Source of the DNA: Callorhinchus milii
Lineage: Eukaryota
DNA: 64,000 nucleotides
Direction: 5' to 3'
Assembly: GCF_018977255.1 (NCBI RefSeq)
Contig: NW_024704742.1
Span: 102,364,001 to 102,428,000, forward strand
Positions within the stretch are counted from its first letter, which is position 1. Every line of letters begins with the position of its first letter. Positions 3,995-40,367 of the stretch are shown one piece after another. The translations under genes were made by a program, and so were the position numbers. The notes beneath the pieces were generated by a model. That model saw only the letters and a list, made by a program, of their open reading frames with translations, was not told where the DNA came from and did no database searches.

Positions 3995-6729
3995 CTGACT
4001 GTGCAAGGAGCAGGCATGATGGGTTGGATGTCTTTTTCTCATTCCATACTTTCTTATGTTAAGTGGCTTGATGGTAGATTTGAATGAGATTTATATCACC
4101 ATATTGAGGTCAGTTTAGCAATGCATTGAATATTTATCATATTAAATGTTCTGGGATATGCTGATGTCATTTTCAATGGTGATGTCTGTGAAACTGAATC
4201 TGCAGCTTTAGCTGATGCATCGCAGCTTTTGATTACCAGGCAGCAGTGTACAAAGTGCTTGGGTTTAGTAAAAAACTGCTTTAACTATAGCCAGCAGTTC
4301 AGAGCAATGATTTCAGAACTGTGATTCACAAATTGGAAGTCCTGTGTACACACCCCACTTCACGACCACTGAGAATAGTATCTTGGGTGGGAGGAATCCA
4401 CCTAACACATATCCAAATACAGTGAATTTCAAATGTTCCACTAAATGGACCCAATTCTGTGCAATAAAGATCATTCTATCAAATAACAAGATAGTGCTTT
4501 TTTTGTTGGCTAAGCTAATTTACAACTATGGCCTCAGCGTCCATGTATGAGGGATAGAGGAATTGTTCACCCATTCCATGTCACTATCCTTTAACCCCGA
4601 TGGAACATTTAATCTTGCACATTGGGTAGGATAGAATCAAACTTGGAGGATTGACTGTGATGCCTTACATAGGTTGATCAGTCTTATGCTATTCATTGAC
4701 TAGGTTCACCAGATGAAGAATGTGCTCTTCAGTGAGCTAATGGAGGCCTATTGTTATCCCATCTCCAGAAATGCACTGCCATCTCCCCACCTTACCGCCA
4801 GAATTGTGTTGAGTAAGAGCTAGTACCTTTAGGGAAAGAATGGAGGCAATTTTTATTGCAGCAATAAACAGAGTGGCTCCTTCAGGACTAATTTTTTTTT
4901 AGAATCATACAGCACAAAAAGAGACCATTCGGCCCGTAGAGTCTGTGCCGGCTCTTTGAAAAGAGCATGTATCAATTCTTCCTGAAAGTCAACATGTATC
5001 ATTGTAATGAAGGCTTCAAGAAGGTTTTTCATGGTATTGCCAAGACTTGAGCCTATCTGAAAATGTAACAAGTAAAGTGAATGCCTTCCTTTAAAATGAA
5101 TTGGCCGTTCCTAACTGGCCTTTTGCATTTAAGTAAATTACATTGAAAAGTTGTTCAGTGCTGAATTACCTGTCAAGACCTGAGATGATTGTTTTGCAAT
5201 AATTTTGGCAGCAATGATGGTTTTATACAATGGACTCTGCAGTACATAACAAAGTGGAAGTGCTAACAGTCATTTGCCAATCTTTGTACGCCCACTGCTT
5301 TTCATTTTCTTCTGCCTCCACTGAAGGTCAGTGCAAGAGATAAGCATATGACATTGTTGTGCCAGTTATGCAATGATCTTGCACTTACCATGCATCACAA
5401 AATGTCATCATGCCATTTTGTTTTGGTACTGACTCTTTTCAGGCTGGAAACAGAGATAAGTATTTGCAGAAGCCATAGGAGATTCCGTTCTGGGCATTGG
5501 TTTCCCATGTCCACTGAAACATAGAAATTTACAACACAGAAGACCACTTGGTTCATTTATGTGCCTTTTCTCATAGTCCTGCAACAGCTTCTACTCCAAT
5601 ATTTCTTCGCTGATTAGACAAACACAATAGCAGATCTGCACTGTCTTGAAAAAACTAGTATAGGATGGGAGATTCCTCTCGACGTGAAAGGTGCTCTATA
5701 AATGTAATTTTTTGTTGTATTTTATTGTTGTTGGGAGATTCAAATCAGTTGACTAAAAAATCAGTTTGCACAAAAAAAGTATTGTTACATTGTCTGGGCT
5801 AGTTAATGAATCTGACTGTTATATCAATTTTCAATTTTGCCCGACAATTAAGCACTCATGATGACTCTCTATAAGAACTTCACTATAAATTGGCAGTTGC
5901 AATTCTTACTGGAAAAGTGATCAAGAAAAAAATCAGTAAATGTGGCTCCAAGTGTGCACTACCATAAAGCTTTTGTCGTGTCTAGTTATTGCTGCATTTG
6001 TTTATTGTTGCGGTATAAGGTATGAAAAGAATTCCATGACTATAAGTGCTTTTTGAATCTTTTATGAGTAATAGTTGAGACTGGGCTCTCTTATAAGAGC
6101 AAATCTGTTATGAGAATAGCTTATTTATGATTTAAAAAATTAAAGTCCTTTCTTTCTATCAATCTACAATTTAAGTCCACAGCTAAAGAGCTTTGCATCA
6201 GCACTTAGGATATTGGGATACGGACATGATAGCTGTACAGTAAGTTTTCATTGTTAACTATGCCTATTGTTTCATTGCTAGCTATGCTGTCCTTGAACAT
6301 TATGACGTGGAGGCCAGATTCCGTGGTTTGTCTCACTGGGACCAGGGGCGGAATTTAGATGTAGAGTTTCCCCGAGTCTGCAACCATGCATCTCTTATTG
6401 AATAGTAATAGATAGTGATGTTTGCAGCAGACTGGAAAAGGTATGCTTCTCTCTTAGACAGGAAATGCTGCTTGGTGAGTGATCTCTAAATAGAGAGAGT
6501 AATTCACACACAAAAAAACACATTAGACATAGATGTGGACCAAAGAAAATACCCAAACTGAAATGACCTAATTTGGGTTAATTTACTGAAAGGTCATGAT
6601 CTCAATCAAAATGATTTATTCTTGTCAGGGGTGTCTGATACATGAAGAAACCCATCATCATGTTTAACAGTTTCCAAACTAAATATAGTTCCATGCATCC
6701 TACCTATAACATGAAATTCCAGAGCTATT

Positions 6730-7095
6730 GATTGGACTGGAATGCACTCTCTCCTTGGAGGGACCCCTCCTGCTTACCTAATTCCGGAAAGTATTAGGCG
6801 CATGTTGGCAAGAGCCATGGCTTAGGGACCCCAGAGTGTGGTTGGGGTACTGCTGGAGCTTAACCAGCGAAAACTGCATAACTTGCCATTGAGAGCATTG
6901 TCTGACTGGCTTGCAGATTTAACGGGAGCTAAGTGTGAAGAGTGCCTGCTGTCAGTGATTGGTCTACCCTTCTAAGTCCTGCCGATGAGCCACGCTGGCT
7001 GTCCTATCATCATCCACTTATCTCCTCCCCAATGCGGGAAAGACACTAGTTGATCATTTGACATCCAACAAGCACGGGATTGAGCCCTCATAAAT
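6730..7095 (-). mobile_element. Possible ancient tRNA-derived SINE fragment (unclassified)
   Basis: GC-richer block ending in a B-box-like GGGCTCAATCCCG on the minus strand (about 7074-7087). No family recognised. Confidence 0.3.
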
Positions 7096-8000: not shown

Positions 8001-9622
8001 TTTTTTTAGGGTATATTTAGGACTACTATTTATGGACTTTAGTAACGATATAAAATACATCATAAATTCATATCACAATATACAATGTGCAGTTCAAATG
8101 ACTAAATAAATACATTGACCTAGTAATTGATGCAGCTTCATGGAAGTAATGACGCTTTTGCCTGATTCCCAATGGATAGTAGATATGTGACTTATTCGTA
8201 TGGTTACACACATCAATTTTCTATTCCAGACTTTGATTGAAAGTAAAACTGTTCTGGTGGTGGATGTTGCTTCGTCTACATATTGGTTTTATCTATTCTT
8301 AAAAGCATCAGTAAGAATTACTGCCAGTTGGGCTTGTGTCCTGTTGTACAAAGATATGCCCTTTGACTCTGGAGGGCATAAACTTCAGCCCTTCCCCTCT
8401 CGCTGAATTCAAACCTGAATTTTAAATTTCCCCAAAGGGCCATCCCCAATCACTATTTATGAAAAACTTAAAATGAGATTTATATAGCCCAAGAGACATT
8501 ATTATCTCACTGGAAATTTATTGTAAACTTAAAGATTGAGCATAATTTAACTCTTCAGGTGGCAGGCATAGCAGATGTGAAAATGTACAATTTGAGTTAA
8601 TTCAATGAGGGAAGGGTTAACAAAGAAGGATTCCAGATCCACTTAATTTGCTATAATAAGATCCCCAGTACTCACAGTATGCAGGGAGGGAAATATGAGA
8701 CTCCTTAATTTAAAGCACCATTACAAGAATAATTCACAATTTTTAAAGTGCAAACCTTGAATGTCAATGAGTCAAATTTTATAAAATACTGTGCATGTGT
8801 ATGTACACACACACATGCCTAGAATCCTATTCAGAAATGTATACGTCATAAATACTGAACAGATAGTACAACTGATTGAAGTCAATATTATAAGATCAAA
8901 AGAATATGGAAATATCATTATACGGTGATCAAAACATGCACTGATATTGAGAATAATTACATTGAGAGTGCTGTAGACTGCTTACCTAACTCAAACAATT
9001 ACGTATTAGCTCAGCTTGTATTAATAGAAACAGTCAAGACAAAGACGTCACTTGAAAAGAGGACAACAGCTCTTGCATTTATACATTAGAGGCAGGCTAA
9101 GAATGCTAAACAGTAGATCTATAAGCAACGTCAACTCACTATGGCCCTAATGCAGCAGTTTGCTGTGTAGTAGGTAAAGAGGTAATTAAATTAATAATTT
9201 ATTGTATTTGCATACAAATGATGTATTGGATAGTTCCTCCCATCGCTGCAAGGTATTTGTCAGAAGTGTGGCCAACACAGTCATTCAGGTTATACTTAAA
9301 AATACTCCATGTGTTAATATTATCTCACCACAGTTTGGTTGGAAGAACAAAGGTTCAACAAATTATGAAATTAGACTTAGTTCACCAGCAGCTCAAAGCA
9401 AACTCATGATTTCATTTAATCTACGTGACTGTTGGACATTAGTGAATTTAACACAGCAGCTAATCATTTTAACTTAATCATCCTAACAGCTGCTGCTATT
9501 TCTATGTGAAACACACAAGCACAAAGCAGTCTGACAAATGGAATGACCACGTGGGTTCAACAGGGGAAACTGAGCTTCATAAATTAAGGAAAGTTTGCAG
9601 GAAACAGCATCATGATGGAAAT

Positions 9623-9819
9623 ATAAGCAAAACACAAAATACTGCAGATGCTGGAAATCTGAAACAAAAACAAAAGTCGCTGGGAACATTCAGCAGGTCA
9701 GGCAGCATCTATGGAGAAAGGAATGTGAATCAATGTTTCGGCTCCACGATCCTTCGTCAGAATTGATCATGATACAAAAACAGAAGTCGCTAAGTATTCC
9801 CAGCAACTTCTGCTTTTGT
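9623..9819 (-). mobile_element. Penelope-type terminal-repeat mini-insertion with an inverted partial copy
   Basis: AATACTGCAGATGCTGGAAATCTGAAACAAAAAC...CAGCAGGTCAGGCAGCATCTATGGAGA resembles the common shark/ray repeat. It is flanked by the 14-bp direct repeat ATCATGATGGAAAT (9609-9622, 9820-9833), and 9789-9819 is an inverted copy of about 9662-9694. Confidence 0.65.
9728..9764 (-). ncRNA. Minimal type I hammerhead ribozyme motif (decayed copy)
   Basis: The minus strand reads AATT-CTGACGA-AGGATCGTGGAGCC-GAAA-CATT-GATT: CUGANGA and GAAA catalytic boxes, imperfect stem II (GGATC/GAGCC), stem I AATT/GATT, and a loopless stem III (ACAT, a plausible CpG decay of palindromic ACGT). Confidence 0.55.
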
Positions 9820-11362
9820 ATCATGATGGAAATGTTTGAAATACACATTTGATAAGCTTCAAAACAAAGCCTCATGCCATGGGTTGTGAAGAGTAGGTTA
9901 GCATTGAGAGCAGGATCTGCGAAGATAAATGGTGTTTCCTTGGAGCTGAACAGGTTCGAAAGAAACACTTTTGGCAATGAATGTCAGAATTCAGTCCACC
10001 CTCTGAAGTGGTCCTGAGCCAGGCTGGTCTTCGATACTCCAGGGTACTGATGATGACAGTCTAGCCAGCTTGGCTTATCGGCAGAATTTAAAAGAGCAGA
10101 CCAGTCACTGAAGGGAAGGACATTTCACACACAGCTCCTGTTAATCCTACAAGTCAAATCCCGAATGGTTGGGTGGTTTTAGACAGACAAGAAGTACGAA
10201 AGAAGTACAAGAAGTTGGCAGGCAATGCTCTCAATGGCAAGCTCTGTGGTTTTCATTGGTTAGACTCCAACAATACCCCAATGGACACTCTGATTCCCAA
10301 GCCTTGGCTGTTGCTCACCTGTACTTAATGGTCTCAGAAATTGGTAAGCAGGAGGGTTCCCTCCAGGAAGAGAGTGTGCATTCCATTCCAATAAATACCC
10401 CTGGAATTTCCATGAGTAGATGGGATGCGTGGAATTCTCAGTTTGGTTTGGGTACTCTTATGCATGATGATGGGCTTCCACATATGTCAGACACCCGACC
10501 GTTCAAAAAAAAAACAGCAAATGTATCAAGAAAATAGGAGGCAAACAACACTCAGCAAATGAATGATCTCAGTAAATCAGAACTGAAACTTCACCACAAT
10601 GCCAGGCTAGAAGCTGACCTTCTTCTGGTCTGTTCTTGTTCTTAAGAGCCATTATAAGAGCTATTGAGAAGTAGCCATGTAGTATTCCATAATTGAAGTC
10701 TCATTGGAACGAGAGTATTTAGTGGGAAGAAGGGATCGAGTTACTGGCAGGAGGTTGCGTGACTATTATATTTATTTGGTGCAGTGATGATCAGCAGGTA
10801 GTTGAGAAGTAGCTCCAGTTTTGTAGAGAGTATGAAGTCTCATAAGTCAGAGCAGACACTACACAATAACCCAGCCTGCTTAAATCAAGTATTAATAGGA
10901 ATAGAGCAGAGGAGCCAAGAGCAGGAGACCAACCACTGCAGATAGCTGCACGAGACTACCATTGACCAATGTTTCCATGAAACCCTGTAAATGAGCTCTT
11001 TTGTTTTATATAGACAGGTTTGTAAGTCAATTAACTGTTACCTTAATACCTTTTATTTGGATTTTACTCGGTATTGCATCTCTTTGGTTTACTTTTGTCG
11101 AATTGACGTTTTGATTTTCTGCACAATTAAACCCCTCTGTTAAGGTTGCCTGAAGCCATTCTCCAAGAGAATTGCAGCCGACATGACTTCATCTTGGAGT
11201 TTTGACCTCAACACTTTCATAGCTGCCATGGGAACATTCATGAGAAATGCTCCCTACTGTGCCTGTGGCTTGTGTGAGATCTCCAATGTGGAATCTGCTG
11301 CAATTTATATATACCAAATAACAAATTTCAGTGCTCTGTTATATCATTCATGTGAGGGATGG

Positions 11363-11671
11363 TAATAATAAAAATAATCCTTGCATTTGATATAGCGCTT
11401 TTCACGTCGGGAGGACATCCCAAAGCGCTTCACAGAACACACTGTAAAGTGAATTGACTGTATATTTGTGGGCGAACGCGGCAGCCAATTGCGCACAGCA
11501 ATGTCCCACAAACAGTCGTAGATTGAAAATGACCAATTTATTATTGTTTTTTTGGTTTTTTGGAGGGATTATTATTAGGCGTGTGGAGTAAGGAAACTTA
11601 CTGCCTGGAATTGAACTCAGGTCTCTCGCTTGCAAAGCAAGTGCTCTAACCATTGAGCTACAGGACTCCAC
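11363..11671 (-). mobile_element. Young tRNA-Ala-derived SINE (family B, short form), near full length
   Basis: Head GTGGAGTCCTGTAGCTCAATGGTTAGAGCACTTGCTTTGCAAGCGAGAGACCTGAGTTCAATTCCAGG with A and B boxes. Near-identical to 25214-25552 and 40043-40367 apart from a small private deletion after the head; (ATT)n tail. Confidence 0.93.
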
Positions 11672-12842
11672 GATTGGTATTGCCTTATCTGAGTGTTGGA
11701 CTGCTCTATAGTATGCAGAGCACCTTCCAATGTCTCTTGGAAGGAGGGAAGTGACACTTTCATTACAGTTCTTATGCTCCATGAGCCTTCCTTTGAAAGT
11801 TAGCCCCCTGAGGCCAAGGCTGGATTTAAGACCATTATACTACATCTTAAAAGGATCGCATAAGTTGTCAGTCTTATAAAACTGTTTAACAACAACAAGA
11901 TTATATTTGTATAGCGCCTTTCATGTCGGGAGGATGTCCCATTTTAATTGGTTTAATTTACCAAAGAGGATAGGAAAGTGCTACAACCATCTAATTTTGC
12001 ATTCCACTGTTGTGCCAAAATTTCCCGCTGAGCTGAAAAAAGGATATTTTCGTATTCATTACTACAGACTTTAAAAAAAAGTGCACTTTGGATTCAGGGA
12101 ACCTGAACTGTAGACATTTCAAAGTGCCTCAGAGTAGCAGCAAGCTTGATATAGATGAACATGCATGCACAGACACTATCAAGGTTAAGTGGTCACCAGT
12201 GGAATCGCTAATGAAATGACACGTAGCTTAATACACCGATTGTGGCAATGAGAGCAGGTGTGAGCAGGCAGCTCCTTTTTTGTATTTATAAAAAGGTACA
12301 GGATGAAAAATTAACAAAAATGCACTAAACGAGAGGCACTTCTGGCACTCTGCCAGCCCTGTTGCTTTGGATCCAGGCCAACTCCAGGAGCTGCAGCTAT
12401 GTCTTACTGCTTCTGTGGAGCCCGACACCTGTTCCCCTGAGCGTGTCGTGTGGGAGAGACCATGTAGACATGCTAGCACATCTGTCACTGTGCTTGACCC
12501 TGGGGGAATCAGAAGGAACAGTGAGACCAACTAAAACACATTTACATGTGACTGTGTCTGTGGCTGTTGGCTTTGGTGCACTAGATTACAAGTGGAAGAA
12601 ATATAGTTTAACTAAATGTAACCACCTTCTGGCAATAAGTGGCAATTTTATAAACGTTCATTATACAGTATTTAACAAATGTGATAAAGCCAATTACTGA
12701 GTGCAGAGACCAAATACAATAGGATTTTTATCATGTAGAAACAGGTGGAGGTCATCAGGCCCAACAACCCTGCAATTTTATTAGTCCAAGGCAGATTTTG
12801 TTAATCCCATTGCCCTGTCTTTTCTCCAAATCTAGCCAGATA

Positions 12843-13379: not shown

Positions 13380-14925
13380 TTATCCCTAATAAACTTAATT
13401 CCCAATAATTTATTTCGCTTTTATGCCCCCAATCAATTCTCCCTCTACGGTCTCCTAGTGCATTCAATATTTTCTCAATTCCTTTGTGAAAAATTATTTT
13501 CTGTTCACAGAAGTATGAGTTAACTCTAATTTTAAGATCATGTTCCCATGTTTTCAATTACTCTACCAGAAGGAATCATCGTCAAACTATTTAACTTGTC
13601 AATTACATATATTGTTTTCAGATCACTCGTTAACCACCTCACGTTTATGGAATATAACTGCCGAGATCCCCTCCCCACCTAGCTGCTGGTCACTCAACTC
13701 CCCCTCCTCACCCGACCTGCTTGGTTAACCAATCTCTCTCCTCAGGCTTCAGTTCCACTCCCACTCCTCAAAAAACCCACCCTTGATCCCTCACACTGCC
13801 GTCCCATTTTCAACTTACCCTTCCTTGCCAAAAGCCTGGAATGCATTGTTGCGGTCAACTTCGGTCACACTTCTCCCTCCATTCCCTCCTCGAGCCCCTA
13901 TCTTCTGGTTTTCGCCCACAGCACAGAGACAGCTCTTGTCAAAGTCACAAATGACATCCTCTCTATCTGTGACCATGGCTCCCTCTGCCTCCTCATCCTC
14001 CTGGATCTGTCTGCCACGTTCGACACAGTTGACCACGCCATCCTCCTCCACCGCCTCTGCTCCCTCATCCACCTTAGTGGGATCACACTCGCATGGTTGA
14101 GTCCTACTTAACCAGCCGCCTCCATTTCATCTCGGCAAATAATTTCTCCTCCCGTCCCCGCCCAGTCACCTGCGGCGTACCCCAGGGCTCCATCCTTGGC
14201 CATCTCCTTTTCCTCATCTATATGCTCTCTCTGGGTGATGTCATCTGCAGGCACGTGGTAAACTTCCACATGTATGCTGATGACACACAAATCTAAGTTG
14301 CTTCCTCCAGTACCAATTCCAGGTATGCCGTTGTTCTATCAGCTTGTCTGGCAGACATCAAGGCCTGGATGAGTGCAAACTTCCAACAGCCTTCTTCCAC
14401 CTACTCCACATTGCCCTCCTCCAACCATACCCCAAATACAGCTGAAACTCTTGTGCATGTGTTTGTCACCTCCCGCCTGGATTACTCAAACGCACTCCTC
14501 ACCGGTTTCCTCAGCTCCACTACTCAAAAGATCCAGCTCGTTCAGAATTCTACCGCCCGCATACTGATCCGGACTAAATTCCGCACCCACATCTCACCAG
14601 TTCTGGCCAGGCTCCTGGCTTTCCATCACTGAACGGATCAACTTCAAGATCCTCACTCTCATGTTCAAATTCCTTTGCTCTCTGACACCTCCCTACCTCT
14701 TCATAATCCCTAATCCTTCATCGCAGGCATTAATCTGCTAAATCATTCCTGGATGACATCCAAGGCTAGTATATCCTTCCTAAGAGTGGACATGCAAAAA
14801 CTGAGCACAATTCTCCAAATGATATCCGACTGGCACTCTAAGTGACTACAGCTTCCCTTCCTCTCATTTATACTCCTGTTCTCCCATCAGCCTTTTTGAT
14901 CATTTGATGGTCAAAGCATTTTTTA
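13380..14925 (-). mobile_element. Old CR1-clade LINE fragment (13380-13680 and about 14730-14925) split by an L2 insertion
   Basis: ORF 13306-13557(-) KTWEHDLKIRV...FHKGIEKILNAL resembles the CR1 ORF2 C-terminus (TRGH.LK...FF.QRVV..WN.LP). The segment after 14730 has decayed CR1-like TCCAAGGCTAGTATATCCTTCCTAAG. Confidence 0.55.
13690..14720 (+). pseudogene. L2 LINE ORF2 reverse-transcriptase fragment (frameshifted, internally deleted)
   Basis: Motifs LLDLSATFDTVDH (about 13996-14036), [37 protein letters not shown] and IQLVQNSTAR, spread over several frames. Confidence 0.92.
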
Positions 14926-20420: not shown

Positions 20421-21383
20421 CACCTCTCTTATCTACTAAACTTGACATTGTATATTGCATTAATACACTTCATAACTGCTGTGCTTTACTCCCTGCACCA
20501 ATTGCTGTATAAAACTTTTCTATGCGACAGCACACTATATTTAACCCAGTAAACTGAACCATTTTACATTACTGCATTAGACTGCACTACCATAGGGCAC
20601 AAATTTCTTTCCTTAAATACAAAACAATTTACTGAAAATAATGAGGGTGAGGAATGACTAAAATAAATTATAGTTTTTTTTCTGACAGCAGCTACCAAAC
20701 CGCAGACAAAACAATAAGTAATGAGAGCCCCAAACTCCCTGAAGCAGATAAAATCTATATATATGTATATATTTTTATTCCATCTACTGTAATATGCTTT
20801 TATAAAATCCAGCTGTACAATGCAGCACAGATTGGGAAGAATTTTGTGTTTTTTTAACCTTTCTTGAAATGATTGTGAAGTTCTGTCACTCTTAGACAAA
20901 TAGTGGAGTAGAAAGAGCCATTGTTGCAAAAGTGGCAGCATGATTAGCATTTCACACGAAAAAGGGTCTTGGGACAGACAATGCCTCTCCTCCAGGGATT
21001 GCCACACACGAGAAGCTAGCTCTGACCATTGTCTCAGAGCCTCCCTCCATCAGATTGGCATAATGTACATGTAGGAAGTACAGTTTATATCCTGAGACAA
21101 TTTTTCTGGTGCAAGGTGCTAATTACCCCACAGTTTCCCCATGACTGCTTTTCAAGCTAAGTCTGAAGTGGCACAGAGTATCTGTATGCTAAAGTGTTCT
21201 CAGGTGTTCTTGGGTTAAGGATGGGTCATCTGCTCCAGATCAGTAGCCAGGGTAGTATCTGTTCTATTCCAACACTATTGCAACACAATAAGTGTTTAAA
21301 TTCTCTTCCATTGTGTAACTAAATCTAGAGTTTCACTAGAGTTTCAACTGGCTCAATTCATACCACTCTCCCCTCTGAGTCAG

Positions 21384-21552
21384 AATAATAATAATAATAA
21401 TAATAATAATCCTTGCATTTGATATAGCGCTTTTCACGTCGGGAGGACGTCCCAAAGCGCTTCACAGAACACATTGTAAAGTGAATTGACTGTATATTTG
21501 TGGGCGAACGCGGCAGCCAATTGCGCACAGCACAGCAATGTCCCACAAACAG
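21384..21552 (-). mobile_element. Young family-B SINE, 5'-truncated
   Basis: (AAT)n-CCTTGCATTTGATATAGCGCTTTTCACGTCGGGAGGACGTCCCAAAGCGC...CCCACAAACAG, near-identical to the other young copies, with a small CACAG duplication. Confidence 0.93.
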
Positions 21553-21689
21553 TTCAAGCCTGCATCTGGATTTTGAACTCACAAATCAGGGCTGACGCTC
21601 GAATACACTGCTGGGGGAAAGCTGCATGGGTAGAGGTGTGATCCTTCATGTGAGATGTTAAACTGAGCTCCTGTCTGTCTGTTCAGGTG

Positions 21690-25211: not shown

Positions 25212-25246
<35 letters not shown>

Positions 25247-25775
25247 CCTTGCATTTGATATAGCGCTTTTCACGTCAGGAGGACGTCCCAAAGCGCTTCA
25301 CAGAACACACTGTAAAGTGAATTGACTGTATATTTGTGGGCGAACGCGGCAGCCAATTGCGCACAGCAATGTCGCACAAACAGTCGTAGATTGAAAATGA
25401 CCAATTTAATTATTGTTTTTGGTTTTTTGGAGGGATTATTATTAGGCATGTGGAGTAAGGAAACTTGCACAAGGTTTCGCCCTGCCTGGAATTGAACTCA
25501 GGTCTCTCACTTGCAAAGCGAGTGCTCTAACCACTGAGCTACAGGACTCCATGGCCTTGTAGGTGAGGATGAGGATCTTGAATTTGATCCTCTGGGGGAT
25601 GGGGAGCCAGTGGAGGCGAGCGAGGGTGGGAGTGATGTGATCGCGAAGCCTGGTGCGGGACAGTACACGAGCTGCAGAGTTCTGAATGACCTGCAGCTTG
25701 TGGAGGGAGGTGCCGGGAAGGCCAACGAGGAGAGAGTTCCCATAGTCCAGCCTTGAGGTGATAAAGGCGTGGACT
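24802..25775 (-). mobile_element. Young L2 3' fragment (24802-25213 plus 25551-25775) split by a SINE
   Basis: VHAFITSRLDYGNSLL...LHWLPIPQRIKFKILILTYKA | HGLAPSYLSDLL...[12 protein letters not shown]...FKTGLKTFLF; (AAC)n tail. Confidence 0.93.
25214..25552 (-). mobile_element. Young family-B SINE, full length
   Basis: Complete tRNA-like head, CORE-like stub, shared 3' module and about 10 ATT tail units. Confidence 0.95.
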
Positions 25776-37869: not shown

Positions 37870-38405
37870 GCAAAACATTGGGTAAGTTTCCTTACTCCAC
37901 AAGTCTGTGTTTACCTAGCAGTGAATAGGAACCCGATTGTCAGTCGATTGGCGGATCGCTTTTCTGTGGTTAATAATCCCTCCGAAAAAAGATGTTGTCA
38001 CCCAATCCACAATTGTTTGTGGGACACTGCTATGCACAAATGTCTGCTGTGTTTCGCCCACAAAATATACAGTCGATTCATTTTGCAATATATTTTATAA
38101 TATAATAATAATAATCCCTCCAAAACCAAAAACAGTAATAAATTGGTCATCTTCAATCCACGACTGTTTGTGGGACATTGCTGTGCGCAATTGGCTGCCG
38201 CGTTCGCCCACAAATATACAGTCAATTCACTTTACAACGTGTTCTGTGAAGCGCTTTGGGACGTCCTCCCGACGTGAAAAGCGCTATATCAAATGCAAGG
38301 AATTAAATTAAGTTAAATTAAATTATATTCTGTGAAGTGCTTTGAGATGTCTCAAAGACATGATAAGGCGCTATATCAAATGCAAGGATTATTATTATCA
38401 TTATT
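37870..38405 (+). mobile_element. Older long-form family-B SINE (headless) with a nested young copy
   Basis: TTGGGTAAGTTTCCTTACTCCACAAGTCTGTGTTTACCTAGCAGTGAATAGGAACCCG CORE-like segment. The body is interrupted at about 38097 and resumes at about 38325 (ATATTCTGTGAAGTGC). Confidence 0.88.
38098..38324 (+). mobile_element. Young family-B SINE, 5'-truncated, with an (AATTA)n tail
   Basis: AATAATCCCTCCAAAACCAAAAAC...GGGACGTCCTCCCGACGTGAAAAGCGCTATATCAAATGCAAGG-AATTAAATTAAGTTAAATTAAATT. Confidence 0.9.
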
Positions 38406-40016: not shown

Positions 40017-40367
40017 GGAGTCCTGTAGCTAGGATTATTATTGTGGCGTCCTGTAGCTCAGTGTTTAGAGCACTCGCTTTGCAAGTGAGAGACCTGAGTT
40101 CAATTCCAGGCAGAGGGCGAAACCTTGGGCAAGTTTCCTTACTCCACACACCTAATAATAATCCCTCCAAAACCAAAAACAATAATAAATTGGTCATTTT
40201 CAATCTGCGACTGTTTGTGGGACATTGCTGTGCGCAATTGGCTGCCGCGTTCGCCCACAAATATAGTCAATTCACTTTACAGTGTGTTCTGTGAAGCGCT
40301 TTGGGACGTCCTCCCGATGTGAAAAGCGCTATATTAAATGCAAGGATTATTATTATTATTATTATTA
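40017..40367 (+). mobile_element. Young full-length family-B SINE (40043-40367) preceded by a 26-bp head+tail micro-copy (40017-40042)
   Basis: GGAGTCCTGTAGCT-AGGATTATTATT-GTGGCGTCCTGTAGCTCAGTG...; candidate TSD TACAT at 40009-40013 and 40366-40370. Confidence 0.93.

Follow-up and report, generated by a model that had tools for sequence, protein, structure and literature searches.

The insert between 9609 and 9833 very probably derives from a Penelope-like retroelement (PLE) with an endonuclease, as a single old copy that was dead on arrival and is reduced to its terminal repeat (pLTR). It is best read as a further copy of an abundant, already described kind of element and not as a new ribozyme mini-element, and the hammerhead motif within it is a passenger of the pLTR. 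The tail, the inverted partner and the motif point to a terminal fragment of an endonuclease-positive PLE as the most likely identity, and we infer that the insert descends from a parent with an open reading frame (ORF).

Anatomy of the insert

All positions refer to the 64-kb stretch of DNA that was analyzed (the window). The following features were distinguished at the locus:

9609-9622, no strand: left copy of the target site duplication (TSD), which starts with the 8-bp palindrome ATCATGAT
9623-9765, minus strand (RNA sense minus): main piece, very probably a 143-bp 3′-terminal (pLTR) Penelope-like fragment, tail included, supported by contig depth
9623-9663, minus strand: optional "tail" between the two end clusters of the family, limits approximate
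9728-9764, minus strand: minimal type I hammerhead, decayed; A16.2 replaces G, and stem II has an A.G mismatch
9679-9694, plus strand: small stem-loop intrinsic to the element; the same sequence is the apex of the terminal hairpin
9766-9773, no strand: internal repetition of the target site's first 8 bases, the third copy of them
9774-9791, plus strand: 18-bp fold-back copy of the inverted piece, 16/18 identical to the inverted piece and 17/18 to 9664-9681
9789-9819, plus strand: inverted, tail-less, 5′-truncated second piece of 31 bp, the reverse complement of 9664-9694 (25/31 identical)
9820-9833, no strand: right copy of the TSD

The first-pass annotation had described a 197-bp insert within an exact 14-bp TSD-like repeat, and exactly this was found, with the two copies of the repeat at 9609-9622 and 9820-9833. 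In shuffled windows, perfect 14-mer repeats separated by 50-300 bp occurred with a mean of 0.13, and 21 of 200 shuffles contained at least one. By itself, the repeat is thus evidence of modest strength, and it carries weight because a member of a repeat family sits between its copies. Searches with blastn and nhmmer found no other copies of the element within the 64-kb window. Tandem units are absent from the locus, and one hammerhead was counted both at the locus and across the window. In run X5 (organism B), the flanks 9250-9617 and 9861-10021 were about 86-92% identical, and therefore the locus is orthologous there; a contig bridging the insertion site, as expected for an empty site, was not seen in this run, which covers both flanks. 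The left flank was mostly or wholly uncovered by the contigs of runs X1 and X9.

The inverted terminus that had been proposed for the right end had to be revised. The inverted piece itself is real, but it is part of a 62-nt hairpin (9766-9827) and not a fixed terminal repeat. In this hairpin, 8 target bases and 18 mirror bases (9766-9791) pair with 9802-9827, and both arms contain the target palindrome ATCATGAT (9766-9773 and 9820-9827). Folding of the minus strand of 9760-9833 yielded a z value of -12. The internal bases 9766-9773 match the beginning of the target repeat base for base, and the chance of an 8/8 match at this fixed register is 2.7e-5. The turn of the hairpin is formed by the element's own small stem-loop, which recurs at 9679-9694, and the fold-back copy overlaps with the inverted piece by 3 nt at 9789-9791.

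The window also contains repeats of other kinds, and judged by its repeats it resembles cartilaginous-fish DNA. A second, rarer interspersed repeat (9922-10177) starts about 90 bp to the right of the insert and reached a depth of up to 3,271 in run X1. A separate repeat family is represented by an inverted pair of about 280 bp with 77% identity (10219-10496 and 6629-6904). At 13683-14108 a weak reverse transcriptase match was obtained (RVT_1, E=2.3e-5, below the curated cut-off), and this region, together with several similar fragments, looks like decayed LINE sequence. A younger family with 89-96% identity is probably a SINE (11363-11674, 21376-21553, 25225-25551, 38106-38301, and 40040-40367). 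An open frame of 131 codons at 1911-2306 had no Pfam match; we take it to resemble a retrotransposon gag fragment.

The hammerhead motif

On the minus strand, the hammerhead extends from 9764 to 9728, with C3 at 9760, CUGACGA at 9760-9754, and an inserted A at 9753. Stem II (9752-9748/9744-9740) contains four of five pairs, including G10.1-C11.1, one A.G mismatch, and a 3-nt loop. GAAA (9739-9736) is followed by the loopless C15.2/A16.2, by U16.1, and by U17 at 9732, and stem I (9764-9761/9731-9728) consists of 4 pairs, one of them U.G. The predicted cleavage position is 3′ of 9732. A canonical type I hammerhead with loop 1-loop 2 contacts was rejected, given a 4-bp helix I, a 5-bp helix II with a 3-nt loop, and a helix III devoid of a loop.

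The CUGANGA and GAAA boxes alone occurred at chance level in the 64-kb window (6 matches versus 4.66 expected). The full structural descriptor had a single match in the window, at 9764-9728, and on this descriptor the five other box matches were rejected. It also matched in 1 of 200 dinucleotide shuffles, which is a favourable figure because the descriptor was composed after the motif had been seen. None of the Rfam hammerhead models matched 9000-10500 at E<=10. At the same threshold, seven miRNA-hairpin models and two snoRNA models matched with values far below the gathering score, and a miRNA reading was rejected.

The descriptor match confirmed the earlier claim of a minus-strand hammerhead with both boxes, stems I and II, and a loopless stem III. 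Its assignment to the minimal Penelope type also held, as the motif agrees with the published consensus in the available part of the supplement of PMC4209133. The traits of PLE minimal hammerheads that are present comprise the core boxes with NUH, the inserted base A9753 between A9 and position 10.1, and the pair G9752-C9740. The family majority, derived from the loose-end consensus, also has both core boxes.

A third claim, that this copy had decayed from ACGT to ACAT, was substantiated by the family as well. The palindromic 15.2-16.2 is lost in the insert (ACAT), and ACGT is present at 9734 in 58-77% of the family depth; C at this position accounted for 71%, 77%, 59%, and 58% of the aligned depth in the four runs. 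The hammerhead of the insert probably does not cleave, because the palindrome on which a dimeric helix III depends is disrupted and a second hammerhead is absent from the locus. Folded as a monomer, the hammerhead structure is 4.9 kcal/mol less favourable than the minimum when taken by itself and 12.8 kcal/mol less favourable within the insert; these values were obtained for this copy only and were not counted toward decay.

The nine helix pairs were compared by eye between two sequences, the insert and the family majority, the latter being composed of the loose-end consensus (agreement 0.38-0.57) and the depth table. Two pairs were changed on both sides and yet remained paired, namely 10.1-11.1 (G-C in the insert versus A-U in the majority) and 2.3-1.3 (A-U versus G-C). 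One pair was changed on one side, one was broken, and five were the same. The compensatory pairs suggest that the insert belongs to a diverged subfamily whose master retained the fold.

Abundance, ends, and joints of the family

Public contigs from 4 of 24 runs, representing three organisms and with no contigs listed as RNA, were aligned to 9250-10200 at 80% likeness. The runs yielded 11,461, 3,388, 7,590, and 21,437 aligned contigs, totals that include the neighbouring repeat at a more than 100-fold lower depth. In run X1, the depth over 9602-9761 climbs from about 10 to up to 7.8e5. The summed depth over 9698-9729 was about 6e4 times the flank depth in runs X1 and X5, which is not a copy number. 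The family of the element is very abundant, and it is so in runs from three organisms.

Loose ends on the left side were located at 9627-9629, 9635, and 9666 in all four runs and additionally at 9662 in run X1; these positions come from 24 of 1,305 rows and are partly determined by the insert's own mismatches. Beyond them, the contigs run into AT-rich sequence of low agreement. The spacing of the two end clusters, 31-34 nt, matches the tail of 30-40 bp that PLE insertions carry at one end only (PMC8557442, in the part available). It also matches the two internal initiation sites of an Anolis PLE, between which its tail is located (PMC11167929, in the part available). The tail is carried by the main piece, and the inverted piece begins at 9664, the inner cluster, and is tail-less.

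Fifteen of 88 joints were listed, comprising 11 strand switches, 3 skips, and 1 joint that goes back 99 bases. The 11 strand switches among these had different breakpoints throughout, each represented by 1-2 contigs. As the breakpoints vary between copies, the inverted end is a recurring by-product and not a fixed terminal repeat. An adjacent inverted, 5′-truncated copy with a variable junction, a trait of endonuclease-positive PLEs, is a feature of the locus. Past 9762 the agreement was low (0.38-0.40), and the majority strings of X1 and X9, from two organisms, shared 12 of the first 15 bases, which weakly indicates that part of the family copies may extend upstream of 9762.

Search for a coding parent

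Protein searches with the element gave one candidate (open frame) and three candidates, none of which scored, and another search was empty. The only protein match, P0001, is a 71-aa singleton that aligns over query residues 3-34 and belongs to no Pfam family. A link to an ORF with reverse transcriptase and GIY-YIG domains was not obtained in these protein searches, and such blanks are weak evidence. A DNA-pattern scan of viral contigs had 0 matches; other scans found 0 and then 15 loci in metagenomes and 1 in prokaryote genomes. These 16 loci were treated as chance, as none matched beyond 20-21 bases.

The minus strand of 9706-9725 contains a pyrimidine tract that ends with AG and is directly followed by an ATG at 9708. 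The frame of this ATG is open to the end of the element, and the same frame was found in P0001. The region may represent a splice acceptor together with the opening codons of the parental ORF. In other PLEs, the ORF start overlaps the pLTR (PMC3846280, in the part available).

Comparison with known systems

Minimal hammerheads in the pLTRs of metazoan PLEs are mostly dispersed single motifs that were ascribed to truncated PLEs (PMC4209133; this paper and those cited below are represented by the parts available). The insert shares with them CUGANGA plus one inserted base, G10.1-C11.1, a short helix I, GAAA, the loopless 15.2-16.2, and NUH. Unlike them, it no longer has the palindrome, and one pair of helix II is missing. 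The portion of the published alignment that was compared includes no cartilaginous fish.

Endonuclease-positive PLE units (PMC8557442, PMC3846280) resemble the insert in the one-ended tail, the inverted truncated 5′ partner, the palindrome at the junction, and the flanking duplication. However, the insert has no ORF, and its junction palindrome takes in 8 target bases, which was not found described in the available parts of these two papers. The element Poseidon PAc of Anolis carolinensis (PMC11167929) is similar insofar as two internal initiation sites bound its tail, and its protein cuts and extends both strands. One initiation region of PAc is located 111-118 nt past the point where stem II begins, and the end clusters of the family are found about 89 and 118-125 nt past this point. 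The comparison with PAc concerns layout, and the activity of the PAc protein is documented, whereas the family is known from DNA alone.

Non-LTR retrozymes (PMC7229834; 10.64898/2026.07.22.740005) are likewise short and non-coding, have a type I hammerhead, and are related to PLE terminal repeats. They are, however, defined by tandem units that each contain a hammerhead (10.64898/2026.07.22.740005), and they form arrays and circular RNAs, whereas the locus consists of a single unit with an inverted stub. A survey of the locus and the window revealed no array of at least 2 units each with a complete hammerhead, and a non-LTR retrozyme was rejected at the locus.

The anatomy of the insert, with a 5′-truncated end plus tail, an inverted tail-less piece, and a TSD, fits published PLE insertions and thus leads to the reading as an ordinary truncated copy. 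The first-pass annotation had instead proposed a distinct retrozyme-like mini-element. This proposal was not upheld, in view of the single hammerhead, the lack of tandem units, the variable inversion breakpoints, and a layout that is that of an ordinary 5′-truncated PLE insertion.

A proposed insertion mechanism

An Anolis PLE protein cuts and extends both target strands (PMC11167929, in the part available), and palindromes at inverted PLE junctions have already been interpreted as self-priming on an antisense template (PMC3846280, in the part available). We propose the following series of enzymatic steps, reconstructed from the pieces, their orientation and identity, the abundance of the family, the end clusters, and the variable joints, all of which were directly observed. 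The element's endonuclease would cleave both target strands, at positions offset by 14 nt. The 3′-OH of the top strand would then prime a first cDNA at the outer start site, generating the tail and the pLTR from 9623 to 9765, and this cDNA would stop at the upstream edge of the hammerhead (9765). The 3′-OH of the bottom strand would prime a second cDNA at the inner start site, yielding 31 tail-less bases from 9819 to 9789. The 3′ end of the second cDNA would fold on the small stem-loop of the element and prime itself, and the self-primed strand would extend to 9766, copying 15-18 nt of the second cDNA and 8 nt of overhang from the target. Finally, the folded-back strand would be joined to the end of the first cDNA, and the gaps would be filled.

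The internal copy of 8 target bases is best explained by folding back of the second cDNA into the target overhang, an explanation based on one copy. The hairpin junction is most simply accounted for by a single event, with cDNA primed on both target strands and the shorter of the two products folding back. It is possible, and we put it forward tentatively, that the right end preserves an intermediate of PLE integration, in which the second cDNA, still attached to the overhang, folded on its own stem-loop and copied the target. The 3′ end of the inverted piece can fold into 6 bp with a 4-nt loop, ending at 9789; this snap-back hairpin is weak (-1.0 kcal/mol), and 17 of 200 shuffles were equally stable. 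The last bases of the target (9820-9827) resemble the element at 9657-9663, just before the inner start site, a short homology that may have served to prime the inverted piece. Neither this particular family nor a PLE fold-back that includes target bases was found described in the literature covered, to which most subscription papers, Repbase, and Dfam do not belong. In the available part of the supplement of PMC8557442, two 14-base motifs of the element and three shark genus names had no match.

Alternative explanations

The junction alone could have originated differently. Host repair or replication might have produced the 26-bp inverted copy (9766-9791) as a templated insertion via the palindromic 8-mer, without the reverse transcriptase of the element. 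End-joining polymerases can make templated inverted insertions, and the self-complementarity of the 8-mer and the 3-nt overlap at 9789-9791 are in line with such an origin. We nevertheless regard it as unlikely, because the turn falls on a stem-loop that belongs to the element and because strand-switch joints are frequent in the family (among the 15 of 88 joints listed). There is a slim chance at best that two insertions took place, first a solo 143-bp piece with a 14-bp TSD and later a 46-bp head-to-head pair (9774-9819) with an 8-bp TSD that entered the right-hand repeat. An exact parse is possible, with the same 8-mer on both sides of 9774-9819, and the Anolis endonuclease cleaves near its own ORF-pLTR junction (PMC11167929, in the part available). 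This scenario, however, requires a second cut at the identical target position, with a duplication of 8 bp compared with 14 bp the first time. The pair would be tail-less at both ends, and the hairpin turn exactly on the intrinsic stem-loop of the element would be left unexplained. A fold-back of the second cDNA in a single event is thus the account that we prefer for the junction.

A further alternative concerns the master of the family, which might be a non-coding RNA of short length, either a retrozyme monomer or another non-autonomous PLE derivative, with a PLE protein mobilising it in trans, perhaps via circular RNA. Short pieces do reach very high copy number, and the agreement of only 0.38-0.40 past 9762 looks as though many copies stop near the upstream edge of the hammerhead. 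Speaking weakly against this, X1 and X9 agree in their majority strings at 12 of 15 positions past 9762, with a share of copies going on upstream, and PLE insertions are mostly 5′-truncated to one terminal repeat (bioRxiv 10.64898/2026.07.22.740005, in the part available). The same source reports non-LTR retrozymes in one chondrichthyan genome and dispersed monomer derivatives in many families, and the joint that steps back 99 bases (among the 15 of 88 listed) is tandem-like. A circular template would also be compatible with an intact cleavage site. Yet the locus is without a tandem unit and has only one hammerhead, and the motif is of the minimal PLE type, in contrast to the canonical type that defines non-LTR retrozymes (PMC7229834, in the part available). 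A short-RNA master is therefore very unlikely in our view, and truncation of an ordinary PLE remains the preferred reading.

Implications

The origin of the inverted ends and one-sided tails of PLEs is described as an open question in the available parts of PMC8557442 and PMC11167929. As a sequence, the insert is of little weight, because it is a single decayed copy; it is useful as a record of mechanism. Junctions with target bases within the fold-back establish the order of priming and fold-back, and they can be counted in an assembled genome. If such junctions were recurrent throughout the family, it would be the nascent cDNA itself that served as the antisense template put forward in 2013 to account for head-to-head PLE palindromes. 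Priming from the two initiation sites would then take place on both target strands within a single event, and the tens of thousands of family copies would make fold-back junctions countable.
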